Assembly (NCBI GenBank): GCA_903920695.1
Contig: CAIXNB010000231.1
Location: 4,580-68,579 of the forward strand
Reading direction: 5' to 3'
Length of the DNA: 64,000 nucleotides
From: an uncultured beta proteobacterium
GTDB taxonomy: Bacteria > Pseudomonadota > Gammaproteobacteria > Burkholderiales > Burkholderiaceae_C
The notes below the pieces were generated by a model that worked only from the letters and a program-made list of their open reading frames with translations, had not been told where the DNA came from and did not search any database. The position numbers and the translations under genes were made by a program. The number at the start of each line of letters is the position of its first letter. Positions within the stretch are counted from its first letter, which is position 1. Below, one piece after another: positions 20,782-42,389 of this stretch.

Positions 20782-21329
20782 GTCTGGGCCTTGCCGGGAC
20801 TACCCGTTGACACCGTGCCAATAAACTGCTGCAGAGCCCTGGCCATGGCGCGCGCTGCTTCGCTCAGGGAATGTGCCGGCACATCGCCGATCACGCGCGC
20901 GAGGTCTTCCTCGATGTCCCAGCGGACATGATCCGCCAGCCAGTTGACTTCAGCCGCCAGTTGCACATCACCGGCAATCCGCACCGCGGGTCGGGTGCCG
21001 CGCAGCAAACCTTGCGCCAGGCTCAAGGGAGAGTCTTCGGTCAGTGCCAGCACCAGATCGGCCGCGGCACTGGCTGCAGCCTGGTCGAGCAGACCAGCCG
21101 GCGTGGCCACCAAACGCATGGAAAAAGAGCGCCATTGCAGTTGCACGACGCGGCCTTTCTGCCGCGCCAGTCGGCTTGTCGCCTCGGTCTCCTGATTCAG
21201 AATATGGTTCAGCAGCAAGACAATGCGGCGCTGAACCTCCTCTCGCGCCCATTCTGGCGGCTGTAAATCGGGAAGGGGAAGTGTTTTGAGAAAACCTTCG
21301 AGCAATAAAAAGGGGGACTGTGTTGCCAT
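20778..21329 (-). CDS. ubiJ: SCP2-domain ubiquinone biosynthesis accessory factor UbiJ-like
   Basis: The size (183 aa), the position immediately upstream of ubiB with a 4-nt stop/start overlap, and the hydrophobic SCP2-like N-terminal half support the call. The call rests mainly on context. Confidence 0.6.
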
Positions 21330-21385
21330 AGCCCTCTATTATTCCCTGAATCGCCGCGCGCCTGGGCGCCAAGCTCACAAACTCA

Positions 21386-22354: not shown

Positions 22355-22420
22355 TCAATCTCCAGTTGGTTTTTATATCTAAGGGCCGAACTCAAAAGCA
22401 CAAGCGTTAGTGCAGTTGTA

Positions 22421-23152
22421 CTAGCATTTGATTCCAACATGCAAGGCAACCAGGCCACCGGTCAGATTGTGGTAATCGACGTGGCCAAATCCGGCTTGCT
22501 GCATCATGGCCTTGAGTTCTTCCTGTCCCGGATGCATGCGAATCGATTCGGCCAGATAACGGTAGCTCGCATCGTCGCCAGCCACCCATTTGCCCAGCTG
22601 GGGCAATATCTTGAAAGAATACCAGTCGTAGACCTTTTCCAGCGGTGGCGCCACTTTGGAAAACTCAAGCACCAGCAATTTTCCGCCCGGTTTGAGGACG
22701 CGGTTCATCTCGGCGAGCGCCACGTCCTTGTGCGTCATGTTGCGCAAACCAAAGGCGACGCTCACGACATCAAAATGACCGGTTGGAAATGGCAGCTTTT
22801 CTGCGTCGCAGACCAGGGTCGGCAACGCGACACCGGCGTCGAGCAGGCGGTCGCGCCCGGTGCGCAGCATGGCCTCGTTGATATCGGTATGCACGACGCG
22901 CCCGCTTTTGCCGACTTTCTTGGAAAAAGCCAGCGCCAGATCGCCGGTCCCCCCGGCAATATCGAGCACTTGATAGCCTTCGCGGATGTTGGCCACCAGC
23001 ACGGTATACGCCTTCCAGGCCCGGTGCAAGCCCATCGACATCAAGTCGTTCATCACGTCGTACTTGGGTGCAACGGAATCGAACACGCCGCGCACGTGCT
23101 TTGCCTTTTCGGTCTCATCGACCGATTTGTAGCCAAAATGTGTTGTTGTCAT
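22421..23152 (-). CDS. ubiE: demethylmenaquinone / ubiquinone C-methyltransferase
   Basis: HFGYKSV...[25 protein letters not shown] and the SAM-binding motif [10 protein letters not shown]. Confidence 0.95.
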
Positions 23153-23166
23153 ATCACGATGTTAAT

Positions 23167-23580
23167 TCAACGGCTGGCGCAACTCGGAGCAGCTTTGTCG
23201 GGCATGGGCGTATCGCGCGCCACACCTGCGGCGAGCAATCGAGCCTCATAGTCGGCCCACAATTTCCCCTCCTGCTCGCCAAGGAAGTAGAGGTAATCCC
23301 AGGAAAAAAGTCCGCTGTCGTACCCGTCGGAAAATGTCGGCTGCACGGCGTAATTGCCGACCGGCTCAAGTGCGGTCAGGCTCACATGGCGCTTACCCGT
23401 CTGCAGGACTTCCTGCCCCGGCCCGTGGCCTTGCACGTCGGCCGAGGGCGAGTACACGCGCATCAACTCAAACGGAATCCTGAATGTCTTGCCATCCGAA
23501 AAACCAACCTCCAGCACCCTGGACTGGCTGTGCACCGTCATAGCCTGTGGCGTCGGAGCGCCTGCTTGCAAACCTGCCAT
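23167..23580 (-). CDS. DUF971 (gamma-butyrobetaine hydroxylase-like N-terminal domain) protein
   Basis: A 137-aa protein with the motifs FELMRVYSPSADVQGHG and FSDGYDSGLFSWDYLY, which are characteristic of DUF971. Confidence 0.7.
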   Translation of the reverse strand: MAGLQAGAPTPQAMTVHSQSRVLEVGFSDGKTFRIPFELMRVYSPSADVQGHGPGQEVLQTGKRHVSLTALEPVGNYAVQPTFSDGYDSGLFSWDYLYFLGEQEGKLWADYEARLLAAGVARDTPMPDKAAPSCASR

Positions 23581-23604
23581 TTTGTTTTACCTGTACCTAT
23601 CTGT

Positions 23605-23669
23605 TGCGAGAAAACGGGAGAGCGGACCCTCAACCCCGTGAACAACAGGAACAGTATCACGGTTTGAGG
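23605..23669 (-). terminator. putative intrinsic terminator after the CHASE2 cyclase gene
   Basis: On the minus strand: CCTCAAACCGTGA-(15-nt loop)-TCACGGGGTTGAGG, a ~13-bp stem with one bulge, followed ~10 nt later by CCCGTTTTCTC. Confidence 0.45.
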
Positions 23670-23726
23670 CTGCGTATGATCGCACGTTGCCAAAAACCAT
23701 CCCGGGCGCATCCTGTCAGCGCAGCC

Positions 23727-25961
23727 TCACTTGCTCGTGAAAGTGAAGGCCCCATCCCAATCGGAACCCGGTGGGTGCTGCTGAAAATGCGCAATACGCC
23801 CGGCATAGATCTGATAGACGTAGCGTTGCGGATCGTGATCGCGCAAAACCTGGAATCGTTCTTCCGCCGACGACCAGTCCTGCGCACGGTACGAAGCCAA
23901 GGCTGCCTCGTAGCGGATGAGTTCGTCCAGAACAGCGGTGTCGCATTGGCCGACCTCGGCTATCGGCTCGTAAATGCCAACCGGCCTGAGCTTGCCCTTG
24001 ACGCGCACGCAGTCCAGTTCGCGGTAGACGAAGTCCGGCACCGCCGCGCGCGTGTACTCGCTGACAATGATCTGGACACCGTATTCTTTGGTCAAACCTT
24101 CCAGACGCGAACCCAGGTTCACGGCATCGCCCATCACGGTATAGGCCAGGCGGAACTCGGAACCCATGTTGCCCACCGTCATTTCGCCGCTGTTGAGGCC
24201 AACACCGATCCGGATCGGCGGCCAGCCCCTGGCCTGAAACTGGTCCTGCAGGGACGCCAGCCGGCCAATCATGTCCAGCCCGGCCAGCAAAGCGTGGCGG
24301 GCGTGCAGCGGGTCATGCAGCGGCGCACCCCAAAATGCCATGATGGCGTCGCCCATGTATTTGTCGATAGTGCCGCGATGCTGGTGAATCACCTGCGTCA
24401 TCGGCGTCAGAAACTCATTCATCAACTGCGTCAGTTGAACCGGATCGAGTCCCTCGGAAATTGTGGTGAAACCGCGCACATCGGAAAAAAGCACGGTCAG
24501 ATCCCGACTCTCGCCCGCCAGCGAGTAGGCGCCGGGGTCCTTCGCCATTTCGTCGACCAGCTCGGGTGGCACATACTGGCCGAATAAGCCGGTCAGCAGG
24601 CGTTTGCTGCGTTCCTCGACAAACAAACCATAGAGCATGTTGAAGACAAAAAGAACCAGTATCAGGAGCAGCGTCGAAGCCAGCGGCAAAGCCAGATTGG
24701 CGGCACGCCAGAGGTACAGGTTGGCGCCGACCAGGCCTGCCATCAAGCCCACCGTGAGCAGCGTCGCCCACAAGGGCTTGAGCGCCGGCAGTGCCAATGC
24801 CAGCAGCGCCGCAGCCAGCAGTAGCAAACTCACTTCAATGCCAGCAGCGGAGGTCGGGCGCTCCTTCAGATCGCTATCCAGAATGCCGGCAAGCATGTTG
24901 GCGTGAACCTCGACGCCGGCGTAGTTCTCCTGCATCGGTGTATTGCGCAAATCGTTCAAGCCCGGCGCTGTGGTGCCGACCAGCACGATGGCGCCGCGCA
25001 GGATCTCGGGCGAGACCTTGCCCTGCAGCACATTGCTGGCGGAGACATAGGGGAAGCTACCCTGCCGGCCACGGTAGGGGACCAGGACGGCGACGTCGCT
25101 GTCGACCGGGACGCTGCGCTGACCGAGCGTGATCGATTCCAGTGCCAGCACGCTTTTTTCCTGATCCCTATAGTCCAGTCCGATCACCGCCTCGCGCAGC
25201 GCCAATCGTGCCAAGGAAAGCCCGAGTGACTCGTACAAAGTACCGTGGTACAACTGCAGCAAAGGCAGGCGCCGGATCACGCCGTCTGCATCCGACAGGC
25301 TGGCGAGGTCGAAATAGCCGCCCGCCACACTGTTCGCCTGCAACGGCGACAAATTGGCTGCAAACCCGGTGGCCACCGGAGCCCCGATGCGAGCTGGCTC
25401 AAAGGCGCCTTGCGTGCGCAGCACCGGCGCGGGCGGCAGACTACCCAGCGTGGCGTCCGGCTGCCCGTCATGGCGAAAGTAAAAACCCAGAGCGACGCGT
25501 CGCCCTTTCAAACTGTCGGCAAACACCTGGTCGTAATCCAGACTCGGTCGCAGCTTGCCCAGAGCGGCATGAAAGGCCGGGTCAGCACTGAGCTGGCCCT
25601 GGGCCAGTTGCTCCAAAGTCTTGAGCCCGGAACTCTCGTCGCGCTCGGAGAACAGCACGTCAAAGCCGAGCACATCAATCTTGTAGCGATCAAACAGCAG
25701 GTCAACCAGATGCGCCAGCTTGTTGCGTGGCCACGGCCAGTGCCCTTGTTCCTGCAAGCTCTTTTCGTCAATGTCCACAATGACGATCCGCTTGTCCAGC
25801 GTATCGGGCATGGTCCATTGCAAGCGCAGATCGTAGGCGTAATCCTCCAGGCGCCCTATGAACCCAAGGTCAAACAAGCCCAGCGCGTTGAACAGGATCG
25901 GCAGCGCCAGCAGCAGACTCAGCAGAATACGCAGCGCGTGCCGCTTGAAGAACCCGGCCAT
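23727..25961 (-). CDS. CHASE2 sensor domain-containing class III adenylate/guanylate cyclase
   Basis: Layout: N-terminal TM helix (ILLSLLLALPILFNALGL), a ~340-aa periplasmic CHASE2-type region (RIVIVDIDEKSL...WPWPR), a cluster of 3 TM helices, then the cyclase catalytic domain. Catalytic motifs: LTVLFSDVRGFT, IDKYMGDAIMAFWG, YTVMGDAVNLGSRLE. A TPR-like tail follows. The start lies 2 nt after the tpsB stop. Confidence 0.9.
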   Translation of the reverse strand: MAGFFKRHALRILLSLLLALPILFNALGLFDLGFIGRLEDYAYDLRLQWTMPDTLDKRIVIVDIDEKSLQEQGHWPWPRNKLAHLVDLLFDRYKIDVLGFDVLFSERDESSGLKTLEQLAQGQLSADPAFHAALGKLRPSLDYDQVFADSLKGRRVALGFYFRHDGQPDATLGSLPPAPVLRTQGAFEPARIGAPVATGFAANLSPLQANSVAGGYFDLASLSDADGVIRRLPLLQLYHGTLYESLGLSLARLALREAVIGLDYRDQEKSVLALESITLGQRSVPVDSDVAVLVPYRGRQGSFPYVSASNVLQGKVSPEILRGAIVLVGTTAPGLNDLRNTPMQENYAGVEVHANMLAGILDSDLKERPTSAAGIEVSLLLLAAALLALALPALKPLWATLLTVGLMAGLVGANLYLWRAANLALPLASTLLLILVLFVFNMLYGLFVEERSKRLLTGLFGQYVPPELVDEMAKDPGAYSLAGESRDLTVLFSDVRGFTTISEGLDPVQLTQLMNEFLTPMTQVIHQHRGTIDKYMGDAIMAFWGAPLHDPLHARHALLAGLDMIGRLASLQDQFQARGWPPIRIGVGLNSGEMTVGNMGSEFRLAYTVMGDAVNLGSRLEGLTKEYGVQIIVSEYTRAAVPDFVYRELDCVRVKGKLRPVGIYEPIAEVGQCDTAVLDELIRYEAALASYRAQDWSSAEERFQVLRDHDPQRYVYQIYAGRIAHFQQHPPGSDWDGAFTFTSK

Positions 25962-25963
25962 AT

Positions 25964-27589
25964 TCAGAAACGGACCGTGACACTGACATGGATCTTTTGA
26001 TCACCCGCCTGCGGAATCGAAGAGCCGCTCTCCGGCCCCAACACGCTACCGGTCAGCACCCGCCCCCAGTCGGCAACGACAGCATAGGAAGCAGCGGCGT
26101 AGCGCAGCCCGAGCCCGGCGCTGCGCAATTGGTCGGCCGCCGGCTTGTTCGGATTGGCATCGGTGTTACGGTTGCGCAGCCAGCCGGCGTCCATGAAACC
26201 CAGCACGCGCAGGCCCGGTAACACCTCGGCGCTGGTGATTTCGAGCGTGGCCGACAAGCCGCTGTCGCCCGAAAGGGCACGCTCACCGGTGCCGCGCAGG
26301 GACGAGACACCACCCAGGCCGAATTGCTCACCGGAAATCAGCGCGTCCGGGCTCAGTTGGAACTGAGCGCGGACCGCCCACAACCAGCCCGAGCCGAACG
26401 CCGACAGGTAGTTGGCGCCGGCGCGCACGGCGCGCCAACTAGCACGGGTGATGCGCACATCCTCACTCTGGTAGGCGGCCAGGCTATTGGTGTCGCCACC
26501 CGGAATGTTCTGCACCCACTCCGCGTTATAGCCCCACATGACGGTATCAGACTCGACCCGGTTCGCATACCCCAGCGTCAGGGGGCGGCTGCTGCGATCC
26601 GATTTCAGCGGATCGACAAGGCCGTTGATCTGCGCCGCATTGAAGCGCTTTTCATCGAGCCCCACAGTGATGTAGCTGCGCTGTCCGCCCTCCGGTGGCA
26701 GATAGTGGCTGTAACTCACGCCGTAGGTCTGGCCAGCCCCGGAACTGCTGAAGCTGCCGAAGCTGCCCTCGACATCCGAGTTGGTATAACTCAAGCCCAG
26801 CACGCCGCCCTGGCGGTACAGCGGAATGCGGTAACTCAGACCCAGTTGTTTGACATCGTTGTGCCGTTGCAGCGACGTGGTGAAAGCACCTGAGAACTGA
26901 TGATCGAGGTCGAACAGGTTGGCGTAGCCGCCGATCAGGGCCAGCCGATCCTGCCCCGTCGCGTCCGACCCCATGTTGGACAGACTGGCCGAAAAGTTCC
27001 AGGGCTTGCTTTCCTTGACCACCAGCTTGGCGTCAATCTTGTCGGGTTCCTCAGACTCCTTGAGCGACACCTGCACCTGCTTGCCCTGGTTCTCATTGGC
27101 GATAGCAGTCTGCACCGCCAGTGTCCTGAAATTCGGCGCTGCACCGGCGCGCAGTTCCGGCAGGCTGGCGCGGATATTGGCTTCGCTGAACTGGTCCTGT
27201 CCTTGCAGCGTGATCGTGCCAATGACAAACTTGACAATATTCAGGCGCACGCTGGCACCCATGTCCTGCGGCGGCAAAACAACGCGGTGCAGCGCAAAAC
27301 CTTGCGCCTTGAGTTCAGCCTCCAGCGCGGCGCTGGCCTGCTGCAAAGTTGCCAGCGTCGCGCCGGGCCCGACGAATGGCGCCAGCACCCGGGCACTATC
27401 CGCGTTGCTTAGCGGGTTGTCGCCTGTCACGTCAAACCGATTGATGACAAACGTGGCAACCAGACCGCTGCCAGCTGGCGTCGGCGACTGCGCCAACACC
27501 CAAGCGGGCGACAAAGAGACCAGCAATACTGCGCAGGCGACCGATGATTTGTATGGTTTTCGCATAAGGGGTCGCCTCTTTAAGGACAC
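25964..27589 (-). CDS. ShlB/FhaC/HecB-family two-partner secretion outer-membrane transporter (TpsB)
   Basis: Signal peptide (KSSVACAVLLVSLSPAWVLAQ), a POTRA-like region (FVINRFDVTGDNPLS...) and a beta-barrel with alternating hydrophobic pattern ending in the aromatic residue ...HVSVTVRF. The start is either GTG at 27589 (10-nt overlap with the upstream stop) or ATG at 27565. Confidence 0.85.
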   Translation of the reverse strand: MSLKRRPLMRKPYKSSVACAVLLVSLSPAWVLAQSPTPAGSGLVATFVINRFDVTGDNPLSNADSARVLAPFVGPGATLATLQQASAALEAELKAQGFALHRVVLPPQDMGASVRLNIVKFVIGTITLQGQDQFSEANIRASLPELRAGAAPNFRTLAVQTAIANENQGKQVQVSLKESEEPDKIDAKLVVKESKPWNFSASLSNMGSDATGQDRLALIGGYANLFDLDHQFSGAFTTSLQRHNDVKQLGLSYRIPLYRQGGVLGLSYTNSDVEGSFGSFSSSGAGQTYGVSYSHYLPPEGGQRSYITVGLDEKRFNAAQINGLVDPLKSDRSSRPLTLGYANRVESDTVMWGYNAEWVQNIPGGDTNSLAAYQSEDVRITRASWRAVRAGANYLSAFGSGWLWAVRAQFQLSPDALISGEQFGLGGVSSLRGTGERALSGDSGLSATLEITSAEVLPGLRVLGFMDAGWLRNRNTDANPNKPAADQLRSAGLGLRYAAASYAVVADWGRVLTGSVLGPESGSSIPQAGDQKIHVSVTVRF

Positions 27590-28938
27590 AGATTGCGCGT
27601 GTCCTTGCCGATTTCGCTCAGGATATTGAGCACCATCAGATTGGAACTGTTGGGCAGGGCTACGCTGTCAAAGCGGATGAACGCCGGCCATGTGGCAGGC
27701 CGCCCGACACGCCCGTCATTGCCGGCAAAGCCGGTTTCACCCCGACCCAGATGCAGCGTGCCGCCGGCGGCGATGATTTCGATATGCCCGTTGCGCACAA
27801 ATACGAACAAGCCGGCCTCGTCACCGGATACGCCGCCGCCCGAGAAGAGTTGCAGCAAATCAACCGGCACACCATCAGGCCTTGGTAGGTTGTCAAGCGT
27901 CGGCGCTGTCAAAGGCCGCAGCTCCGAACGACTGACATACAAACCCTGCCCGGCCTCCAGTAGCTGCACGGTGGTCTGCCCAAATTGCGTCACTTCGATC
28001 ACGCCTTGCCAGGTGAAGAAACTGCAGCTGTCCACAGCGACACAGTCAAGGTCAAGGCCGGTGCCACGAATGCCGATGGTGGCCGTGGGCGTCGAATAAC
28101 CCACGTTGCGCTTGTTGGTCTTGCCGATCACGCCCGTCAGCGCGCGCATGCTGCCGCGCAACAGGGAAACCATGAATTTGCCTTCGGCCGGATTCTTGTC
28201 ATCAAAGACAAAGCTGTCGACCTTGAAGCGGGTGCTGGCACCGAGCGTCAGACGGCTATCGTCGCGAAACACCAGAACACCCTTGGCGCCAGGACCGGTT
28301 TCGACCGTTTCGCCGGGATAAACGCTGGCGCCATCAACCAATCTGCGCGCCGTACCTGAATCGCCAATTGCCTTGATATCCCCTTGGGCCGTCACCAGTT
28401 TGGCACTCGCCAGCACCGCGTTGGGACGCGGTTTTTCAGTGGAATTGGCCGATTCGGCCTTGCATTCGGCGCCACAGACACGGGCGTCAAAGTCAGTGCC
28501 ACGGACCAGAACCGTGGCATTGGCGGTCTGGATTTGAGCGGCGTCGGGAGCACCTTTAGAGATCAAACCCGTCATCGCACGAAAGCCGCCCCGCAACAAT
28601 TGCATCACCATGCTGTTGCCAGCAGAACCCTCCTGATACTGGTACTTCTGAACCAGCATTTCAGTGTTCGGGCGCAGCGTCATGCGAGTGCCGTCCTGCA
28701 GTTTGACAATGGTCGACGAGCTCTCAGCCGTGATCAAGCGATCACCTTCATGCACCGGCGAACCCTTGCCCAAGGTACGGGGCACCTGTCCGGGCGACTG
28801 CACCAGGCCCACGCCCCGCGAAAACTCGACTTCACCGACCGGTTGCGCCACTGCTGTCAAGGCACCGGCCAGCACGGCCAGACCCAGAACCTGCCTGGCA
28901 AAAGGGAACAGCTTGCGGCGCCAGTTCAGTGTGCGCAT
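27580..28938 (-). CDS. secreted tandem FecR-domain protein
   Basis: Sec signal peptide (LGLAVLAGALTAVAQP). There are at least two FecR-type beta-sandwich segments (VGEVEFSRGVGLVQSPGQVPRTLGKGSPVHEGDRLITAESSSTIVKLQDGTRMTLRPNT and AQGDIKAIGDSGTARRLVDGASVYPGETVETGPGAKGVLVFRDDSRLTLGAST). No TM anchor and no anti-sigma N-terminal domain. The ATG lies 13 nt inside the 3' end of tpsA. Confidence 0.8.
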   Translation of the reverse strand: MRTLNWRRKLFPFARQVLGLAVLAGALTAVAQPVGEVEFSRGVGLVQSPGQVPRTLGKGSPVHEGDRLITAESSSTIVKLQDGTRMTLRPNTEMLVQKYQYQEGSAGNSMVMQLLRGGFRAMTGLISKGAPDAAQIQTANATVLVRGTDFDARVCGAECKAESANSTEKPRPNAVLASAKLVTAQGDIKAIGDSGTARRLVDGASVYPGETVETGPGAKGVLVFRDDSRLTLGASTRFKVDSFVFDDKNPAEGKFMVSLLRGSMRALTGVIGKTNKRNVGYSTPTATIGIRGTGLDLDCVAVDSCSFFTWQGVIEVTQFGQTTVQLLEAGQGLYVSRSELRPLTAPTLDNLPRPDGVPVDLLQLFSGGGVSGDEAGLFVFVRNGHIEIIAAGGTLHLGRGETGFAGNDGRVGRPATWPAFIRFDSVALPNSSNLMVLNILSEIGKDTRNLCP

Positions 28939-31900
28939 ATATCACCCTCCACGACGACCGTGTTCTTGTTATTGTCGTACTGCACCAGCGCAACGCTGCT
29001 GACCAGAATCGGCGACGCCAGGATGGATTGGAACTGAACCAAGAAACTTGTGATCAGATCGCTGGTGCTGGCGGCGACGGCCGAAGCCACCCATGGTGGC
29101 GCCACGGACACGCCATTGATGTAGTAATTCACGGGATGTCCCGTGCTCTTGGCCAAGGGGCCGAAGGTCAGGGTTCCGCCGGCAGAAACATTGATGGCCA
29201 GCGCAGCCGTCAGCGTGCTGTTTTGCACAAAATTGTTGGCCGCATTGAGCGTGATGCCACCGACCGAAGACGCCAGCGCACCGTTCAAGGTCATATTGCC
29301 GGAACTGGTGAGGTTGGTCGCAGTCAACACAATGTCGCCACTGGCGCTAATGCCGCCGCTGCCGATGGTCAGGGGACTATTGGCCGTCATCGTTACGGCA
29401 CCGGCGCTGGCCAGCACCGGACCCGAGGTGCTGATGCCGCCGGTGTTGAACAGTTTGATATCGCCATTGGCAACGCTGATGCCTTGGCCGTCAAGCACCC
29501 CCACGTTGGTCAGCTCGATGCTGCCGCCGCCGCTATTGGTGGCCCTGAAACTGCCGATCCGGTTACCCGCATCATTGAGCCGTGTGCCGGTTGCAGACTG
29601 CGTCGACAGCAAGCCCGTGACCAGTCCTGCGTTTTGGTCAATGCTGCCAGTCGGTGCCGCAAGGCTGATGACCGGCGCTTGGATGGACGCCACCGTCAAA
29701 TTACCGGCAGTGTGGGTGATGTCCACCGGCCCACCGGCCACAATTGTGCCGGCCGTCTGGTTGAAACTGCCGTTCACATTGAACGCCCCGCTAAGGCTGA
29801 GGGCGCCCCCGACCTGCGCGTACTGCGACAGGCTCACACTGTTGGCAATCGACAAACTACCGCCGGCCATCGAAACACTGCCAGCGCCCGTGATCGATTG
29901 GAGATGGGTGTCAGCCACGGCCGCGTCGTAGGCAACCGAAACCCCAGCCGGTATCGATACCGCCAGCACGTTGGACGCGTCTGGCAAAGCGTCCCAGCTG
30001 CCGGCTGAACTCCATTGCCCGCTACCGGCAGCAGTCCAGGTCGAAAGCGCTCGCACCGTGATGTTGCCAGTGAGCGGCGTGATGCCGGTGGCCACGCTGT
30101 AATTGGCGGAGTCCGGTCCGCTCAGGGTCAGATTGCTCAAATTGACGAGCTTGCCGCGCCCCACATTGCGGTCGACGAAGGCCGACTCCACACTGCCGAC
30201 CGTCACCTGATCACCGGAAATCAGACCTGTCAAACTGGCGCCGCTTGTCACCGCGGTAGCCGTCGTGTTGCCGTCGTAAACCTTGTCATTGACGGTAATG
30301 CCACTGACGCCGTTGATCACAGCCTTGCTGATGTCGGCAGTGGTCGATGTCACCGTGCTGCCCAGCGTGTAGTTGAGCGCATCGCTCCCGCTCAGACTCA
30401 AGCCGCTAATGGCAACGGTCTTGCCAAGGCCAACGTTCTTGTCGCTGAAGGCGCCCGTGGGCGTTCCGAGTGCCACGTTGTCGCCGGCAACCGCACCCGA
30501 CAGGACGCCACCACTAACCGTGGCCGCAGCGCTGCCGTCATAAACCTTGTTGGCCACCGTCACTGCACTAACGCTCAGAGGCTTGGGCGTGATATCAGCT
30601 GTGGCGCTGGCACTGAGGCTGCCCACACTGTAGTTGACAGCATCAGAGCCAGTGAGCGCCAAGCCGGTGATGTTGACGGTCTTGCCCAGGCCAACGTTCT
30701 TGTCGCTGAAGGCGCCCGTTGGCGTTCCGAGTGCCACGTTGTCACCGGCAACCGCACCCAACAGAACGCCGCCGCTGACTGTCGCCGCCGTGCTGCCGTC
30801 GTATACCTTGTTCGCCGCCGTCACGGCACTGACCGAGACCGGTTTGGGCGTGATGTCGGCTGTGGCGCTGGCACTGAGGTTGCCCACACTGTAGTTGACA
30901 GCATCAGAGCCAGTGAGCGTCAAGCCGGTGATGTTGACGCTCTTGCCCAGGCCGGCGTTTTTGTCGCTGAAGGCGCCCGTTGGCGTTCCGAGTGCCACGT
31001 TGTCACCGGCAACCGCACCCGACAGGACAGCGCCGCTGAGTGTCGCCGCCGTGCTGCCGTCGTAAACCTTATTCGCCGCCGTCACGGCGCTGACCGACAA
31101 GGGCTTGGGCGTGATGTCGGCACTGGTACTGGCGCTGCTAGTGCTCAGGGTGTAATTGCCGGCGTCGGCCCCGCTCAGTGACAGCCCCGTCACGGTGACC
31201 GACTTGGCCACGCCGACGTTCTTGTTGTTGAAATTTGCGGAGGATGAATTGAGACTCACGACATCACCGCTCAAGACCCCAACAAGCGATCCTCCGGTGA
31301 CCGTCGCGCTTACCGTGCCGTCATAGACCTTGCTGGTTCCGGCATTGCTGATCGTTGCGGTCAGTGATGCCGGCATCACGGTAACGGTCGCTGTTTCGTA
31401 GAGCGTGCTTGCATATCCGATCGGCGCAAGCAAGGTCCCGGAAAATGTCACGGGGTACGGACTGCCGTTGACGCGCGCATTGGCAGCAAGACCGATTGAA
31501 GTCAATGCAAGCGTCGACGCGTAGGATTCTTGCGTGAATACACCCCCATACGCAGCTGCGTTCACCAGGCCGGTCACACTGACTGAGGGCGTGGCTGTGG
31601 TGGTACCGTATGTCTTGACAACACTCCCGCCGACGACATTCGCGGTCAGTGACGGCACGGTGTCAAACAGATAGCGATTACCGGTCTCGGTCACCACGGG
31701 ATAACTGGCATATGTCTTGCCCCAAAGCGGAAGCTGGTCACTGCTCAAACCCCCAAAAGCGTCGCTCCCTGGATCGGTCGAATACACCAGCCAACGGCCG
31801 GCACCCGTGGTCAATGCGCCAGAGCCAGCGTTGTTGATAAACGCACCAACGCCAGCGTCACGGTTGGCGCCAATTGCGCTGGAATCATTGGTAGCCACCG

Positions 31901-34900
31901 TCAGGTCAGCCCCCCCGGTACTGATGCCGGCATTTAATACGACCGAACGCCCAGCCTGCAGCGTCAAGTTCCCTGGCGTCTGACCCGTCACCGCGATAGG
32001 TGCATTGACCGTAATGTCGGTGTTGGCCTGCAACACGACGTTCGTGCCAAGATTGAGTGCATTCGACAAATAGCCAGCACCCACCGTTGCATCGCCCGCA
32101 GGACTTGCTGCGAATGTGGGTGAGCCTCCGCTACCGGTTGCGCCAACCAAATACACGCCACCAGCGCCTGCATTGGCCCCTGAAGATCCGACCAGTACCT
32201 GTCCCGGAATAACTTCTGCAATGGAGTACACCATCACCAAGGCACTGTTGGCCGCCGTCACCGAACCGACGGTACCGCTGACACCATTGCCCCAGGTGAC
32301 CGCACCCGTGGTCGTCAATGTGTTGATCGGATCGATACGGTCGGTGCTGTTGACCACATAGTTGCCGTCCGAGAGGGCCGTGATCCTGCCAGCGCCACAT
32401 CCATCACCACATTGCATTCCACCAATCCTGTCATTATTGGTCGTGCCGACCAGACTGTTCGCTGCCGCCAGCACACCACCGGACTGCCCATCGGCCAAGT
32501 GGCCGGTGGCACTGTTGATCCAGGTCGCGGCGCCCTTGTTGCTCGACCAGCTTGGCGAGGTGATGACCCAGTTACCGTTGCCAGACAAGACGGTGACCCC
32601 GGCGTTGTACTTATCGCCACCACTTCCAACATCATCTCCGAGAGCACTTCCGAGGATGCTGTTGGCGCTCGAAACCATGCCGCCCCTTGTGCCATCGGCC
32701 AGCGCTCCGTTGGAGCCGCTCATCCAGGTCAAGGCGCTGAATTGGCCATTCCAATTCGGGCTGCGGATCAGCAAATTCCCATTGCCAAAGACATTCATCC
32801 CCGTCAAGGACGCGTAGGTATCACTGACTACGCCCACCCGATCCCCGGCAGTTAACCCAAGCAGACTGTTGCTTGCCTCAACGATTCCCCCATACACCGG
32901 CAACGGAGCTGTGCTCGTGGACAACTCCCCGGTACTCCCATTCATCCAGGTCACCGCGCCTTTGCCGGCGGCATAGAGACCGCCACTGCCCCACTCAGGG
33001 CTTGATATCGCCAGATTCCAAAATGTCGAGTTATCAGAAACGGTGAGGACATTTCCGGACCCAACACGGTCACCTGCGGTAGAACCAACCAGACTATTAG
33101 TCGCTGTAACCACACCCACTGATCCGGTGGCACCATGACCGAACGTCACTGCACCGGCACCCAAGGCCGTGCCGTTGATCCAGTCAGGACTGGCCACAAG
33201 ATAGTTGGAAAACGTGGATCCATCCGTGATTTCATAAACACCATACGCTCCGACATGATCGCCCCTGGCACGAGCACCAGCACCAGCACCAGCACCAGCA
33301 CCAGCACCAGCACCAGCACCAGCACCAGCACCAGCACCAGCACCAGCACGAGCACCAGCACCAACGATGATGGCCGCCGACGCATCGTCCATTGCACCCA
33401 CCAGACTATTCGTTGCGGATATGGCGCCACCGGTTGAACCATCGGCCAAATGGCCATTCGAAGCATCCATCCAGGTTACAGCGCCCTTGCCACCCGACCA
33501 GGATTCGTTGGAAAAGACCAGGTTGCCGTTGCTCAATGTAGTGACATAACTGCTGCTGACCTTGTCCCCCGCCACCGAGCCCACCAGGCTGTTGCTTGGG
33601 CCAACAACACCCCCGTACACCTGCGCCCCAAGCGTACTCGTGGTCAACTCGCCGGTACGACCATTCACCCAGGTCAGTGAACCGATGTCATTGCTGTTTC
33701 CGCCAAGCCCTGCAACCAGATAATTGCCGCCACTGATTTCCGTAATCGAAGATCCCACCATCTGGTTCGTGTAGTTACCGACCAGGCTGTTACTGGGACT
33801 GACCTGACCGGCTATGCCTGTTGCGCCATTGCCCCAGGTTACGGCACCCACCGCAGTGGCAAGCGCAGCGTCGTTATTCCAGCCCGGGCTGCGCACCAGG
33901 TAGTTTCCATTGCTCAGCGCAACAATGTCACTGCCGACCGAGTCGCTCTGGTAATAGCCCACAGTGCTGTTGGCACTGGAAATGTAGCCGCCCGTCGCGC
34001 CGCCCATAAGCTGCCCGTTCGAACCATTGATCCAGGTCGCAGCGCCAGCGGTGTTGTTCCAGAGCGGGCTTGAAACAACAATGTTATTTGCATTGGCACC
34101 GCTAAGCTGGAAAACGCCACCACTGCCAACCCGGTCAAAGTAGCCCGTGTTTCCCACGAGACTATTGGGACTGGTGGTAGCCCCGACGCCATCAACGACG
34201 CCCCCAAAGCTACCGTTCGACAAAGCACCGGAGTGGCCATCCATCCAGGTGATCGCGCCTTGCGACATGCCTGTTTGGTTCCCCCAGTTGGGCCGGCTGA
34301 TGAAGAGGTTGCCGTTAGGCAACTCAATGTGACTGCTCGCGCTGAGTTCACCCGCTGCAGAACCGAGCAGGCTGTTGCTTGCGTCAATTGCTCCCCCATA
34401 CACCGGTTGCTGAACTGTGCTCGTCGACAACGCACCGGTGCTGCCATTCATCCAGGTATCGCACCCCAAGCCGCCATTCCATGCGGCATTCGTCAGAAGG
34501 AGATTGCCACTGTTGACGAGCTCTGAAACCACCAGGTTTTGCATATCCCCGGCATGCGAACCGACCAGGCTGTTCGCCGAAGAAATCACCCCCCCGGTTG
34601 CAATGCCGTCTGAAAGCTTGCCGCTCCCACCGTTGATCCAGGTCACTGCGCCAAGGCCCGTCGCTGGTGAGCCACCATTCCATACCGGCGTCAGCGCCAG
34701 GAAGTTACCGTTGGCCAGGGCCCTGGCACTGCCGGCATTGTCGTAACTGAACCCACCGAGCAGGCTGTTACTGACACCGATAATGCCACCGCCAGAACCG
34801 TCGGACAGCTTCCCATTTGAGCCATCGACCCAGGTCGCCGCCCCACTGTCAACAAGCGTGCCTTTGTCATACCACGGACTTTGAATAACGAAATTGCTGC

Positions 34901-37900
34901 CGCCGGGCTGGCGCGACATACCCAAGGCACCGACCCGGTCGCCCACGCCAACACCCACCACACTGGCGGCAAATCCTGCGCTACTGGTCGTCGCAACTTC
35001 ACCCGCGGTACCGCTTGTCCCATTACCCCAGGTCACCGCTCCCTTGCCGCTACCCCAAGCGGAGCTGAAAACAACGTAATTCCCATTGGGCAAGACGACT
35101 ACGCCTGGATCAGAAGTGGTGGCATCTGACTGACCCACTCCAACCCGGTCACCATTGAGCGAACCCACAATACTGTTGGTTGATGAAACTTCACCTGCCA
35201 GACCGACACCGGTATCAAACCAGGTTACAGCACCCTTGGCAGCACTCGCCGTACCACCACTGCCCCACCACGGGCTGCGAATCAGATAACCACTGCCACT
35301 CAACGGGTTAAATGAAAGGTCTTCGCTGGTTCCCCAGCCACTGATCATGCTGACCGTGCCAATTCGATCACCAGCGCTGCTTCCAATCAGACTGTTTGCG
35401 GACGTGATGACGCCACCGGTCGCACCACCAAGCAGTTTGCCCGTGCTGCCGTTAATCCAGGTAATGGCACCGGCCTGTGGCGCATTGCCGCCGTTTGCCC
35501 AGTTGTTGCTGAAGATCAGCCAGTTGCCGTTAGCGCCATTCTTTGCGCCAACGGCGTCGATCGGATAGGGCGTGGTTGGTGCCCAGTAGTAATAGGTATT
35601 CAGCGTCGAGATGCCGACCTTGTCGCCCGCAGCGCTTCCAACAAGGCTGTTGGCAGAACTGACCAGACCACCGGGGTTGCCATCCGACAACTTACCGTTG
35701 CTGCCATTGATCCAGGTCACCGCACCTTGGGTTCCACCCCACTGCGGGCTGAAAAATGCGTCACCCCAAAACGAACCGTTGTATGCCTGCTGAAATCCAC
35801 CGGAGCCAACACTGTCGCCCGCAGCGCGGCCAACCAGACTGTTGGCCGCACTGACCAGGCCACCGGTCGTGCCATCCGACAATTTGCCGTTGCTGCCATT
35901 GATCCACGTGACTGCGCCGGCGCCAGTCGCCGCGGTTTGAGGGTTAGTCCAATTCGTGGCCGTGGAGAAGGCATTGCCGTTGGCCTCAAGTTGGATCACG
36001 GCACCCACACCGTCCCCAAATATGCCGCCAACAGCGCTGTTTGCGGGCCCAACCGTACCGCCTGTGTTGCCATTGGACAAGGCGCCGGTAGTCCCGTTCA
36101 TCCAGGTGACTGCACCCATGTTGCCAGACCACTGGCGGCTCCCCACCAGCACGTGCCCGTTACCCAACTGCGTCAAGGCTCCCGATGCACCATACCCATA
36201 CCCATTCCCGTAGCCGCCGACGTAGTCGTTAGCACTTGAACCCGCCAGGGTCGATAGCAGGGTTCCGGTTGGACTGAACAAGTAGACCGCACCGCTGTTG
36301 CTTGCAAACGTGCTGTCCAGTGGCGAAGCAACGACGATGTTGCTGCTGGGCAAAACAATATTCTGTGCGCCACCAAACCCCTCCCCTGCGCCGGGCGTTG
36401 GGTCCAGAATTTCCGCGTAGTTTGAGCCACCCAAGCCGGTCCAGCCCCCCGAACCCGCGGCGACCGTAATATTGTGCGGGTCCAACAGCAAAGTCCCGGA
36501 TTGACCGTGGGGCGCAGACAGATCGGCCAGCGCGTTAAAGCCAAGAGACGCCACTCCTGAAACCTCGGCATTGCCGCCATTGCCGCTGACGGCGCCGCCC
36601 TTGGCACTGAGCTGGCCATTGGCGCGCATAGCCTGGTCCGCCCACAACACCAATTGGCCGCCATCGCCATCCTGCAAGGCATCAGCCTTCAGGCTGACCT
36701 GGCTGTTGGTGTACACACTGCCGGCATTAGCCAAGCTGACACCCAGTGCTTCAAATCCCGACGCCCCATGCGCCAATCCACCAATGCGAATGTTGCCGCC
36801 ACCGTGCGTGCCACTGGCATCGAGTTGGGTGCCTGCGAGCTTGATCTCGTCGCCGGCCAACGTAATTTCGCCACCGCTTGTGCCGGTCGCCCGGTACGTG
36901 CCGGATGTGTAGTTTGAAACGCCAGCGGATAGCAAAATGGTGCCGCCTTTGCCTGCCAAACCGTCTGCCGTGTACTGGGCGGACGCCGTGGAAATCGCCT
37001 GACGGCTGGCCTGAACATTGATCGCGCCACCCTGGCTAACACCATTGGCATCAATGGAAGCCGTAGACAACAAGGCATCGGTCTCAATACGGACCGATCC
37101 ACCTGCAGCCACGGTGCCATGCACATCAATTGCCCCGGACTGCACGACGGCACCGGGAGTCGCCGCCTTAGGGGCATGGTCCACCAAGATTTCAACCACG
37201 CCGCCCGTCGATCCCGATGCATTGATCAGGCCCGAATCTTCGACGCGCTGTGCCGCCCGCAGCACGACCCTGCCACCTTCCAGGCTCGCAGTCGTCGCCT
37301 GAATAAGACCGCTGTGCTTCAAGGTGCCGGCAAAAATGCCCACTGCATCGCCCTGCAAGGTGCCCAGATTGACGGCTGTGTCAGACGGTGCCTGGACCTG
37401 CAAGCTGATACCTTCGAGGCCGCGTCCCGTGATCTCGATCTGCCGGCCTGCCGCCAGGATCGTGCTGCCGTTCGGGGCCTGGATCAGCGCATCTTTGCCG
37501 GTATCGACTTGCGAACCCATCAACACCACATCGCCGCTGCGCGCCAGAATGGCGCCCTGCACCGAAACACCGCTGCTTGAAGCCGTGCCATCGCCAAAGC
37601 GCAGACGCCCGGTCAGGGCATCAGCGTCGCTCATGCGCAGTGAGGATGCGGTGAAGCCTGCGGTATCGACCACCGCGCCAGCACCCACGGCAATGCCAGA
37701 CTGGTTCACCAGCACCAGATTGCCATTGCTGCCCAAGGTGCCAAAGAGAAGGGATGGGGTGTTGGTCAGCACGCGGTTGATGGACGTGCTGCTTGCATTA
37801 GGTTGCTGAAAATAAGTCGCGCTGCCAGCCGGAATCGAGAAACTTTGCCAGTTGATGGCCGAATAGTTGCCGCCGACCCCGTTTTGCGTCGTCACCGTGA

Positions 37901-38189
37901 GTTGCTTGCCCTGACTGAGCAGATTGACCTGCCCGACGACGGCGACAGCACCAGACGGGTTGGCAAAGGCAGAGACGGGAGCGAGACCCCAGGCGACGGC
38001 AATGCCAAGTGCCAGTGGGGCCAGACCGCTTGCGGGCCAAGGACGCCTTTGCAGACGCTTGCGAGCGGGAGCAGACGAAGCACTGGAACTTGAGCCGCAA
38101 CTGCAGATTTCCGCGACCGCAACCATGACCCCCAGAGTCTGATTCCAGACAGTTCGAAATATGTGATTCAACGAGGCACGACGCAGCAT
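28926..38189 (-). CDS. giant two-partner-secretion exoprotein (TpsA; filamentous haemagglutinin N-terminal domain protein), ~3,087 aa
   Basis: - N-terminus: extended signal peptide region ([21 protein letters not shown] ... SAFA).
- TPS/haemagglutination-activity domain: [53 protein letters not shown].
- Body: a Gly/Ala/Ser-rich beta-helix segment, about 19-20 GAVTW-type repeats, five YDG-containing MBG repeats, and a C-terminal beta-helix-like region.
- Start: I chose the ATG at 38189; the track start at 38201 is a TTG. Confidence 0.9.
30333..31115 (-). repeat. three tandem near-identical 261-bp units encoding MBG (YDG) domains inside tpsA
   Basis: There are three consecutive 87-aa units of the form ITPKP(L/V)SVSAVT(A/V)ANKVYDGS(T/A)AAT...[17 protein letters not shown](A/V)GLGK(S/T)V.I.GL.L.GSDA(V/L)NY. 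Long identical DNA stretches occur, e.g. CTTGTCGCTGAAGGCGCCCGT.GGCGTTCCGAGTGCCACGTTGTC. Two more diverged MBG units flank them (~30070-31380 overall). Confidence 0.85.
33268..33363 (-). repeat. hexanucleotide microsatellite (GCACCA/GCACGA)x16 inside tpsA, encoding (Gly-Ala)n
   Basis: Twelve perfect GCACCA units are flanked by GCACGA variants. On the coding strand this reads GGTGCT repeats, giving [34 protein letters not shown] within one GAVTW-type repeat. Confidence 0.95.
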
Positions 38190-38396
38190 GGCCAACTCCA
38201 AAATACGGCATACCCTGATCAGACCTAGAACTTTTATTTGACTTTAATTACAACACAGACAACGCAACAATGTGTAACCATGCTCTTTATCCGGGGGGCA
38301 GCAGATCTTGGGCGATTTTCCGCATAAAGCCCGCGGCATCCCTTGCGGCGAGGCCATGGCAACACCTGATCTCAGGGCGCGCTTTTCATGCTTCGC

Positions 38397-41300
38397 CTAC
38401 ACCAGCACGCGCTCGATGCCGCCAGCGTTGGCGCGCTTGACGTAGTCGGGCAACCACTGGTCGCCCAGAATCTGGTTCGCCATCTCGACCACGATGTAGT
38501 CAGCTTCGAGCAAGCCGTTCTGCAAGTCCTCGCCAAAGCGGCTCAGGCCTTGCAGGCAAGCCGGGCAGGAGGTCAGCATCTTGATGTTCGCCTTGGCACC
38601 CAAGCGACCCATTGCGCGCAATTGAACTTCGCCCTTGCGGATCTCTTCTTCCTTGCGAAAGCGCACCTGGGTCGAGACGTCGGGGCGGTTCATCGCCAGC
38701 GTGCCCGACTCGCCACAACAACGTTCAGACTGGATCACCTTGTCGCCCAGCAGGGCGCGCACGGTCTTGATCGGCTCCTGCAATTTCATCGGACTGTGGC
38801 AAGGATCGTGGAACAGGAAGGAGCCCGCGTTGGGCAGGGTGATAGCTTTCTCCAGCAGGTATTCATGGATGTCGATGATGCGGCTGCCGGGGAAGATCTG
38901 GTCGAACTCATAGCCCTGCAACTGGTCGTAGCAGGTGCCACAACTCACCACCACGGTCTTGATGTCGAGGTAGTTCAAGGTGTTGGCGACACGGTGAAAC
39001 AGCACACGGTTGTCGGTGATGATCTTCTCGGCCTTGTCGAATTGACCCGAACCGCGCTGCGGGTAGCCGCAGCACAAATAGCCCGGCGGAAGCACGGTCT
39101 GGACGCCGGCGTGCCACAGCATCGCCTGTGTCGCCAGCCCGACCTGGCTGAACAATCGCTCTGAGCCGCAGCCGGGGAAGTAGAACACCGCCTCGGTCTC
39201 GGCCGTCGTGCTCTGCGGGTCGCGGATGATCGGGACGTAATCCTTGTCTTCGATGTCCAGCAGCGCGCGAGCCGTCTTTTTGGGCAGGCCACCGGGCATC
39301 TTCTTGTTGACAAAGTGAATGATCTGTTCCTTGATCGGCGCTGTGCCGACCGTGGCCGGCGGCGCCTTGGTCTGCCGGCGCGAGATCACCTTGAACAGAT
39401 CGGCTGCAAGACGTTGCGCCCGGATCGCCACGTTGACCATCACCGAGCGCACCAGGCGAATGGTCTCAGGATTGGTGGCGTTGAGCATGACCATGGCAGC
39501 AGCAGCGGCCGGGCGGAAAGTCTTCTTGCCCATCTTGCGCAACAGGTTGCGCATGTTCATCGTGACATCGCCGAAGTCGATATTCACCGGGCACGGTGAC
39601 AGGCACTTGTGGCAGACCGTGCAATGGTCAGCCACGTCCTCGAATTCCTGCCAGTGCCGGATCGAAATGCCGCGGCGCGTCTGCTCTTCGTACAGGAAAG
39701 CCTCGACCAGCAGCGAGGTTGCCAGAATCTTGTCACGCGGACTGTAGAGCAGATTGGCGCGCGGCACATGGGTGGAACAAACCGGTTTGCACTTGCCGCA
39801 GCGCAGGCAGTCCTTGACGCTGTCGGCAATGGCGCCGATATCGCTTTGCTGCATGATCAGCGACTCGTGGCCCATCAGGCCAAAGCTCGGCGTGTAGGCA
39901 TTGGTCAGATCGGCGCGCAGGTCCGGCGTCGACGGCGACAGCGTGCCGACGTGGCGCAGTAGTTTGCCCGTGTTGAAACACCCCTGCGGATCGACGCGGG
40001 CCTTGTATTCGGTGAAGGGGCGCAACTCTTCATCAGACAAAAATTCAAGCTTGGTTATGCCGATGCCGTGTTCGCCCGAGATCACGCCGTCGAGCGAACG
40101 TGCCAGCGCCATGATGCGTTTGACGGCACCGTGCGCCGCCTGCAGCATCTCGTAATCGTCGCTGTTGACAGGCAGGTTGGTGTGCACATTGCCGTCGCCG
40201 GCGTGCATGTGCAGCGCCGCCCAGACCCGTCCCTTGAGCACGCGCTGGTGCAGCGCGTCGCACTCGCGCAGGATGGCCTCGAACGCGCCGCCGCTGAAGA
40301 TGTTGGCCAGTGGCGCGCGGATCTGCGTCTTCCAGCTGGCGCGCAACCGGTGGTCCTGCAATTCGGAAAACAGCGTGTCCACGTCACGCAGCCAGCCAGA
40401 CCACAGGGCACGCACCTCGCGGATCCGCGTCAGCGCCTGTGCCACGCGGTCTTCGAGCAGCTCGGCTGAGGGGATCTGACTGGCGTCGTCGTGTTTGCCC
40501 AAGGGCAGATTGCCAGCAGCGAAAAAGTCTTCCAGTTCGTCGCACAGCGCAATCTTGTTGCGCAGGCTCAACTCGATGTTGATGCGCTCGATGCCATCAG
40601 TGTATTCGGCCATGCGCGGCAGCGGGATCACCACGTCTTCGTTGATCTTGAAGGCGTTGGTGTGGCGCGAGATCGCCGCCGTGCGCTTGCGGTCAGCCCA
40701 GAATTTCTTGCGCGCCTCGGCACTGATGGCGATGAAGCCCTCACCGCTGCGCGAGTTGGCGATGCGCACCACTTCCGAGGTGGCACGCGCCACCGCATCG
40801 GCGTCGTCGCCGGCGATGTCGCCGAACAGCACCATCTTGGGCAGACCGCCGCGTTTGGATTTGGTGGCGTAGCCGACCGCCTTCAGGTAGCGGTCATCGA
40901 GGTGTTCCAGGCCCGCGAGCAGAACGCCTGTGCGCGCGGCTTCGGCGAACATGAAATCCTTGATCTCGACAATGCTGGGCACAGCGTCACGCGCGTTGCC
41001 AAAAAACTCCAGACAGACCGTGCGCGTGTGACTCGGCATGCGGTGCACAACCCAGCGCGCGCTGGTGATCAGACCATCGCAGCCTTCTTTCTGGATGCCC
41101 GGCAGGCCGCTGAGGAACTTGTCGGTCACATCCTTGCCCAGGCCCTCCTTGCGAAAGGCCTTGCCGGGAATGTCGAGCCGCTCGGTGCGCAGCAGCGTCT
41201 TGCCATCGGCCTTGAAGTATTTCAGCTCAAAGCTGGCCAGCGCCGCGTCGTGAATCTTGCCCAGGTTGTGCCCGATACGCGTCACTTCCAACCACTCGGC

Positions 41301-42287: not shown

Positions 42288-42389
42288 CGGGTTAGGGATA
42301 TTACCGCAGTGCAACATTCACCTGCGGTTCACGTGGAAACTTGTGGCCAGCGGACCTCTGTCCGCAGCCCGGATGGCTTCAACGCGGGG

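Follow-up and report, generated by a model that had tools for sequence, protein, structure and literature searches.

The 64,000-nt stretch of contig CAIXNB010000231.1 from an uncultured beta proteobacterium (hereafter the window, to which all coordinates refer) contains four consecutive, tightly packed open reading frames on the minus strand, encoding a giant exoprotein of the two-partner secretion (TPS) type (TpsA), a secreted FecR-domain protein (here called FecR-like), a ShlB/FhaC-type transporter (TpsB) and a nucleotide cyclase with a CHASE2 sensor. Comparison with related loci shows that the conserved unit is TpsA-FecR-like-TpsB: the fecR-like gene always lies beside tpsB, and between the two secretion genes where tpsA is present. 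An undescribed, family-wide FecR-like third partner of two-partner secretion is thus the new element here. Tentatively, we interpret the locus as a three-component variant of type Vb secretion for a giant repeat adhesin, with the FecR-like protein as its periplasmic anchor and the CHASE2 adenylate cyclase added in one lineage, a reading that we consider quite possible rather than established. A previous interpretation, made from the letters of this stretch (the sequence-only reading), saw all four genes as a trans-envelope signalling device; it is partly supported by the analysis below, since FecR-CHASE2 coupling is credible in view of recurrent linkage and published pairs, but the cyclase turns out to be a facultative add-on to a conserved secretion core.

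Conservation of the TpsA-FecR-TpsB trio

A scan of GTDB with one genome per species gave 80 loci which, together with that of Rhodoferax saidenbachensis, make up 81 species-level loci, all Comamonadaceae-like. The fecR-like gene is directly followed by tpsB in every one of them (81/81). TpsA with the conserved C-terminus is encoded directly upstream in 59 loci and a TPS-domain protein with a diverged C-terminus in six more, while in another six tpsA is absent and the DUF3683 gene is followed directly by fecR-tpsB. The presence of the cyclase could be judged in 67 loci (14 of the 81 were not judgeable): it is found in 15 and missing from 52, and in 36 of the cyclase-free loci DUF971 comes directly after TpsB. 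When the FecR-like proteins are placed in a neighbour-joining tree, all cyclase loci and the window fall into one 17-leaf clade, with the cyclase present in 16 leaves and lacking only in L006 (loci are labelled L plus a number), the sister of the window. The simplest history would therefore be one gain of the cyclase followed by one loss or relocation in L006. The sequence-only reading had asked whether the four-gene order recurs across distant taxa and had named restriction to a single lineage as a ground for giving up its hypothesis. The order TpsA-FecR-TpsB-CHASE2 was found only in this Comamonadaceae sub-clade, and in the distant loci described next CHASE2 genes occur in 4 of 80, in other positions, which by that reckoning counts against the hypothesis in its strong form.

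Does the trio itself persist at larger distances? An exhaustive search for relatives of the FecR-like protein, clustered at 50% identity, returned 333 clusters at E ≤ 1e-30, a number that rises to 15,483 at E ≤ 1e-3. Metagenome contigs were scanned with an alignment headed by a family member of only 33% identity to the window protein, resulting in 80 diverse loci, which were annotated with iterated hidden Markov models seeded from the window proteins; 45 of these have more than 600 nt on both sides. Four loci compared directly encode FecR-like proteins 34–38% identical to that of the window. TpsB adjoins the fecR-like gene in 45/45 well-flanked loci and a TPS-domain protein is also adjacent in 41/45, arranged as TpsB-FecR-TpsA (38), TpsA-FecR-TpsB (3) or FecR-TpsB only (4), and the coding ends of the trio often overlap or nearly abut. 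Individual examples include a complete 4.4-Mb genome with TpsA (>4660 residues), FecR (704 residues) and TpsB in this order, a 465-kb contig with the same trio, and Parvibium lacunae with TpsA-FecR-FecR-TpsB (L174:4281-13898), the latter cluster having genes for a PhoR-like histidine kinase and an OmpR-type response regulator at its flanks. Two more lineages (L173 and L176) have FecR-TpsB alone in the slot between DUF3683 and DUF971. The trio can thus be followed down to about 33% identity, through changes of gene order, and such conservation points to a role of the FecR-like protein inside the secretion or anchoring system and not primarily in a cyclase relay. Our literature search found no account of a TpsA-FecR-TpsB trio, and a comprehensive 2017 review of TPS systems lists CdiI/O/C, HMW1C, HxuC, SphB1 and LapG as add-ons and no FecR-type partner (PMC5422565).

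The FecR-like protein and the terminal cysteines

The four same-strand genes stand as the sequence-only reading had drawn them, and its domain assignments for all four proteins were confirmed by Pfam and NCBIfam profile searches. The tpsA gene (28926..38189, minus strand, as are all features below) encodes a 3087-residue exoprotein with an ESPR (residues 8–42), a TPS secretion domain (residues 77–322, 37224..37961), 17 DUF5650 and five YDG repeats, and about 400 C-terminal residues without an assigned domain. The TPS domain scores 78 bits against PF05860 (cutoff 33.5) in a scan confined to the N-terminal 400 residues, and is also recognised as TIGR01901 (59.8 bits). The tpsB gene, two genes downstream in the same cluster (25964..27565), encodes a 533-residue ShlB/FhaC-type transporter with POTRA_2 (38.8 bits), a ShlB barrel (97.5 bits) and a C-terminus ending in …VTVRF. 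Both hallmarks of type Vb secretion are therefore found, an N-terminal TPS domain following the ESPR signal and a nearby cognate TpsB composed of POTRA and a ShlB/FhaC-type barrel; judged by these domains, the locus encodes a two-partner (type Vb) secretion pair and TpsB-dependent export of TpsA is predicted. Among relatives the length of TpsA varies from 888 to >4660 residues, with the N-terminal TPS domain and a C-terminal Cys motif as the constant parts. The DUF5650 repeat region of the window gene (32000–36000) has a strongly negative GC skew of −0.14 to −0.17. Upstream of tpsA some relatives have putative glycosyltransferase or polysaccharide-modifying genes (L004:5741-6928, with a faint EryCIII-like_C match, and L170:487-2855, with a faint PS_pyruv_trans match), and these genes beside tpsA are reminiscent of a third partner of the HMW1C type.

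The fecR-like gene (27580..28938) encodes a 452-residue secreted protein, with a cleavable signal peptide (…LTAVA/QP), two PF04773 stretches (71.4 bits) corresponding to two FecR beta-domains, and five invariant cysteines. Cell-surface signalling of the FecA-FecR-FecI kind proceeds via anti-sigma regulators of the FecR/PupR type, and the window protein resembles these in having the PF04773 domain and fold, a periplasmic location and an outer-membrane beta-barrel partner encoded next to it. However, a Pfam scan of the protein even at E ≤ 1 returned only PF04773 and a weak DUF7354, with no FecR_C and no anti-sigma domain, and no transmembrane helix is found in it, so the protein is not a FecR anti-sigma factor. 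In contrast to the FecR/PupR-type systems, a cytoplasmic anti-sigma domain is missing, and neither an extracytoplasmic function (ECF) sigma factor nor a TonB-dependent transducer was found among the window neighbours or in the 81 related loci. The previous statement that sigma factor, TonB-dependent receptor, toxin and immunity genes are all absent was borne out by domain scans.

A sequence-profile search of the PDB with the FecR-like alignment returned nothing at E ≤ 1, and only the fold search was informative. The AlphaFold model has a mean predicted local distance difference test score (pLDDT) of 64, with two beta-rich domains reasonably confident and the last 90 residues absent from the model. 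Foldseek matches it, at E of about 1e-5, to 4m0h and the CCSSD of PupR (6ovk_R), which are periplasmic parts of FecR-type regulators. One of its domains also superimposes on a cell-surface anchoring domain (5ix9) with a template modelling score of 0.76, root-mean-square deviation of 1.2 Å and 26% identity over 62 columns, to be read with the model pLDDT of 64 in mind, and the protein scores 48.9 bits against the NCBIfam retention_LapA model (NF033682), just under the cutoff of 50. Variants of the middle protein occur elsewhere. In L170 the slot between TpsA and TpsB is taken by a LysM + FecR form (L170:7001-8734), which has the architecture of the Burkholderia protein paired with a CHASE2 histidine kinase, and one family representative (P0324, 715 residues) has the FecR-like part fused to a C-terminal OmpA-like beta-barrel, without a terminal Cys.

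The cysteines of the two secreted proteins show a distinct pattern. TpsA has a lone conserved Cys3085 (codon 28935..28937), three residues from the C-terminus in the motif VEGDICAH, and all 59 Comamonadaceae tails end with such a Cys (59/59). Among complete TpsA proteins from both locus sets, counted after the signal region, a Cys lies within the last three residues in 42/43 and the total number of cysteines is odd in 39/43; it is the sole Cys in 19, and further cysteines occur as close pairs. The FecR-like protein repeats this arrangement, with the close pairs C155/C159 and C299/C305 and a lone penultimate Cys451 (codon 27586..27588) two residues from the end. This terminal Cys is present in 143/144 FecR-like proteins across both locus sets, where five is the modal count of cysteines, and in 118/120 full-length family representatives (50% clustering). 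In TpsB, on the other hand, the last 480 residues are free of Cys in 113/116 cases. Because adjacent genes each provide one unpaired Cys at the extreme C-terminus, and do so over 33–100% identity, we propose that the two form a disulfide in the oxidising environment of the periplasm, which would be the most economical explanation of the pattern.

How would such a pairing serve the adhesin? TpsA would be exported via TpsB except for its extreme C-terminus, which would remain periplasmic like those of HMW1, HxuA and CdrA and be joined there to the FecR-like protein by a C451-C3085 intermolecular disulfide. The FecR-like beta-sandwich domains are probably too bulky for the TpsB pore and would act as a trans-encoded stopper holding the adhesin on the cell surface; some FecR-like relatives also have a LysM peptidoglycan-binding domain. 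Tight translational coupling would aid the production of TpsA and the FecR-like protein in matched amounts.

The proposal has precedents which differ in instructive ways. In HMW1 and HxuA a small, disulfide-closed C-terminal domain stays in the periplasm and cannot pass TpsB, which results in attachment (Buscher et al. 2006, reviewed in PMC5422565). HMW1/HMW1B and HxuA/HxuB share with the window a TpsA adhesin and a ShlB/FhaC-type TpsB, and there retention of the adhesin is ascribed to a Cys-containing periplasmic C-terminus. Unlike in these systems, where the anchor is small, acts in cis and is closed by an intramolecular disulfide, TpsA here has a single Cys at position −3 in place of the HMW1-type two cysteines. 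With only one terminal Cys it makes no HMW1-type disulfide loop of its own, and a separate 45-kDa FecR-domain protein with a matching lone Cys would provide the stopper in trans. CdrA of Pseudomonas aeruginosa is likewise a TPS adhesin in which a periplasmic C-terminal tail sets retention, tied to a nucleotide second messenger: the tail is cleaved by LapG when cyclic di-GMP (c-di-GMP) is low (PMC4694147, PMC5422565). That pathway works from the inside out, through c-di-GMP, LapD and the protease LapG (the lapG and lapD genes being located outside the cdrAB operon), whereas here there is no protease, the would-be messenger is cyclic AMP (cAMP) and the CHASE2 sensor faces the periplasm. The N-terminal retention module of type I secreted giant adhesins such as LapA and MpIBP (5ix9, NF033682) has the role proposed for the anchor, that of a folded domain plugging an outer-membrane channel from the periplasm; it differs in that the LapA channel is a TolC-like pore and not a TpsB barrel, and in that the plug of LapA is a module within the adhesin, whereas the FecR-like plug would be a protein of its own.

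The CHASE2 cyclase, operon layout and flanks

The last gene of the cluster (23727..25961) encodes a 744-residue class III nucleotide cyclase. Its CHASE2 sensor domain (residues 27–384, 24810..25883, PF05226 196 bits) is bounded by hydrophobic segments at residues of about 8–36 and 369–450, which fits a topology with the sensor in the periplasm and the catalytic domain in the cytoplasm. The catalytic domain (residues 486–658, 23988..24506, PF00211 73 bits) aligns best with Cya2 (2w01), with the E→K adenylate variant of Cya2 (6fht) and with CyaB (3r5g). It keeps the metal-binding D494 and D538 and the Asn/Arg pair N615/R619, while the specificity positions are occupied by Lys534 (Glu in guanylate-specific Cya2) and Thr608. 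The protein thus has both a CHASE2 domain between transmembrane segments and the catalytic residue set, as befits a CHASE2-sensor class III cyclase. In class III cyclases a Lys/Thr specificity pair specifies ATP as the substrate, and the window enzyme is predicted to be an active adenylate cyclase making cAMP.

At least four different architectures place CHASE2 genes close to the trio. In the window clade the cyclase is 3' of tpsB; L141 has another member of this cyclase family 5' of tpsB, which shares 54% identity with the window enzyme, while the FecR and TpsB proteins of that locus share only 38 and 34% with their window counterparts; L130 and L151 encode a CHASE2-TPR-Ser/Thr kinase on a divergently oriented gene about 3 kb away; and L166 has a CHASE2 gene immediately behind the fecR-like one. 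Given this variety of outputs, it is the CHASE2 sensor, and not cAMP as such, that goes with the trio. Four loci with CHASE2 genes in 255 kb of distant flanks, compared with none beyond the linked cyclase in 726 kb of Comamonadaceae flanks, can be taken as a rough indication of enrichment. The link to CHASE2 is therefore facultative but recurrent. Where a CHASE2 protein is encoded alongside, the periplasmic FecR-like protein would be the likely partner of its sensor domain, and adhesin presence, load or release could modulate cAMP synthesis in either direction. A functional contact of this kind is plausible.

Equally similar homologs of the cyclase are also found unlinked to the trio, next to a class II phosphodiesterase-like and a cyclic nucleotide (cNMP)-binding protein, next to a GAF-HD protein, or after a type I secretion adhesin locus. 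In L086 (8001-12076) the unlinked cyclase is followed by a metallo-beta-lactamase/class II phosphodiesterase-like protein and by a cNMP-binding + rhodanese protein, altogether a compact module to make, break and read cNMP. In L089 (1-10235) a 64%-identical CHASE2 cyclase directly follows a type I secretion locus (two ABC, HlyD-like and OEP) behind a giant Cadherin/Big_9 adhesin, which makes it a second kind of adhesin-secretion locus with an adjoining CHASE2 cyclase. We also considered whether other output genes follow TpsB in the 16 cyclase-free loci that have other downstream genes; those tested were mostly unrelated (MFS, ADH, GshB, CorA, YhcG or no Pfam match), with the exception of one HDOD protein and one Guanylate_cyc+FHA protein, and this idea was dropped. 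A soluble Guanylate_cyc + FHA protein without CHASE2 is encoded about 140 nt after tpsB in a Rhodoferax metagenome-assembled genome (MAG; L031:13067-13981).

Proteins with FecR domains have been described beside CHASE2 sensors before. The BiofilmReg cluster of Burkholderia has a LysM-FecR gene with a CHASE2 histidine kinase (PMC5192318), cyaD1 of S. meliloti is paired with smc02177 (PMC5498481), and a Campylobacterota cluster combines a CHASE2 cyclase, a phosphodiesterase, a FecR-domain protein of the outer membrane and also a TPR protein (PMC9239204). These clusters share with the window a secreted or outer-membrane FecR-domain protein encoded next to a CHASE2 sensor, but contain no TpsA/TpsB pair. 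The sequence-only reading knew of no characterised example of such signalling, a statement to be qualified: the outer-membrane beta-barrel NsrA of S. meliloti is required for activation of CHASE2 adenylate cyclases (PMC7529298, PMC13001267), albeit with no TPS system involved.

The gene junctions were read directly from the DNA sequence. The fecR-like ATG (28938) lies 13 nt within the 3' end of tpsA (stop 28926–28928) and is preceded by GGAGGG, and the cyclase ATG (25961) is separated from the tpsB stop by a 2-nt spacer, as reported previously. For tpsB, the alternative start given in the sequence-only reading is favoured over the overlapping GTG at 27589: the fecR-like stop (27580–27582) is followed after 14 nt by an ATG at 27565 with AAGAGG in front of it, and the resulting 533-residue TpsB also appears in external gene calls on identical contigs. 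The promoter-like stretch suggested upstream of tpsA, in the intergenic region 38190..38396, is indeed AT-rich (32–33% GC at 38200–38290, compared to about 61%) and remains a candidate promoter region, but a sigma-70 promoter scan there found no consensus site. Similarly, the 146-nt spacer after the cyclase (23581..23726) does contain hairpins and a short T-run, but the hairpin region is modest (z = −1.87) and the terminator scan gave only a weak 5-bp terminator-like match along with the T-run, leaving a weak terminator candidate before DUF971-ubiE. With promoter and terminator signals this weak, a single 14.5-kb transcript is plausible at most, and there may be read-through into the same-strand DUF971-ubiE genes. 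A CRP-type site (TGTGA-N6-TCACA) with two mismatches at 38237–38252 (TTTGACTTTAATTACA) in the AT-rich region 5' of tpsA was rejected as evidence of cAMP feedback through CRP, because the window contains fewer such matches than its shuffles (15 vs 26).

The cluster is embedded between housekeeping genes: upstream lies the gene of a DUF3683 FAD/Fe-S oxidoreductase, and downstream the row DUF971-ubiE-Tim44-like-SCP2-ABC1, which has the orientation of the cluster. Judged by homologs, the DNA belongs to a Rhodoferax-like bacterium of the Comamonadaceae. The FecR-TpsB pair occupies this same slot, from DUF3683 to DUF971-ubiE-Tim44-like-SCP2-ABC1, across Burkholderiales (window 19216–23580 and 38397–42317; L004, L173, L174 and L176). 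Retention of the slot even without tpsA suggests old vertical inheritance of the pair, with tpsA and the cyclase as the variable parts.

Competing explanations and implications

What else could explain the arrangement? If the primary function were trans-envelope signalling, the FecR-like protein would inform the CHASE2 cyclase of the condition of TpsB or TpsA, in a Fec-like manner with cAMP as the output. The tight packing of all four genes speaks for it, as do the fold shared with the periplasmic signalling domains of PupR/FecR-type regulators, the recurrence of CHASE2 linkage with different output domains, and the published FecR-CHASE2 clusters along with the established NsrA-dependent signalling by CHASE2 cyclases (PMC9239204, PMC5498481, PMC7529298). 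Nevertheless the cyclase is absent from 52/67 related and 76/80 distant loci whereas the FecR-like protein is always kept with TpsB, so signalling to a CHASE2 protein in cis cannot be its core function. This explanation also leaves the matched terminal cysteines unaccounted for and does not fit the cyclase homologs without FecR or TpsB neighbours, so that we regard it as rather doubtful, although it deserves to be kept in mind. At the opposite extreme, the cyclase could be an unrelated passenger, inserted once 3' of TpsA-FecR-TpsB in one Rhodoferax-like sub-clade and co-transcribed merely by position. A single gain in one clade and a single loss in L006 are what one would then expect, as are unlinked 62–64% identical homologs accompanied by phosphodiesterase or GAF-HD genes or located after a type I secretion locus; moreover, while the trio of L048 has no cyclase, a MAG with a (truncated) name matching that of L048 appears to carry one elsewhere. 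Against this stand the independent CHASE2 linkages to distant trios, which differ in position and orientation and in L141 involve a cyclase of this very family, the 2-nt tpsB-cyclase spacer, which suggests translational coupling, and the FecR-CHASE2 co-occurrence published for three other lineages, and we consider a mere passenger unlikely.

The FecR-like protein might also work without any covalent bond, as a periplasmic chaperone or targeting cofactor that keeps TpsA competent for secretion or docks it to the POTRA domains of TpsB, with the terminal cysteines put to another use. Its constant position beside both partners would agree with this, and FecR-type domains do bind partner domains of outer-membrane proteins, as in the complex 6ovk matched in the fold search; FecR-TpsB pairs also persist without tpsA in cis. 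However, a chaperone leaves unexplained why both proteins keep a lone terminal Cys over 33–100% identity next to a Cys-free TpsB, and it does not account for the LysM-bearing and retention-module-like features, and of the explanations discussed here this appears to us the most improbable.

The anchor proposal, to which we return, has to contend with several observations of its own. We infer both the disulfide and the periplasmic position of the TpsA C-terminus, and the structure model of the FecR-like protein is of moderate quality (mean pLDDT 64) and stops short of the C-terminal 90 residues. About a quarter of FecR-like proteins were scored with an even number of cysteines, albeit with a crude boundary for the mature region. 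Six Comamonadaceae loci as well as L173 and L176 retain the FecR-like terminal Cys with no tpsA nearby, which requires either a partner gene at another site or a different use of the Cys. For the cyclase part of the proposal, 52/67 judgeable Comamonadaceae loci and 76/80 distant loci lack a nearby CHASE2 gene, and cyclase homologs of 62–64% identity have no FecR or TpsB nearby; since the trios are mostly without CHASE2 and close cyclases reside in unrelated contexts, the link is facultative and could be non-functional. In its fullest form the proposal would have the FecR-like protein act both as the covalent periplasmic anchor of the adhesin and as the physiological ligand of CHASE2, with mechanical load on the adhesin, or its loss, read out as cAMP in the window clade and as Ser/Thr phosphorylation elsewhere; this we hold to be quite unlikely.

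If this fullest form were true, it would reveal a dedicated pathway for sensing the state of adhesion, and secreted FecR-domain proteins would be the general, long-sought partners of CHASE2 sensors. Two-partner secretion counts as the simplest secretion pathway; a family-wide third component (333 clusters at E ≤ 1e-30) would add to it the retention of an adhesin by a disulfide-linked stopper supplied in trans. CHASE2 domains have, to our knowledge, no defined ligand. Four independent lines, from the literature and from genomes, place secreted FecR-domain proteins beside CHASE2 sensors, and the operon described here offers a compact, genetically tractable case in which activation of CHASE2 cyclases by FecR domains may be studied.

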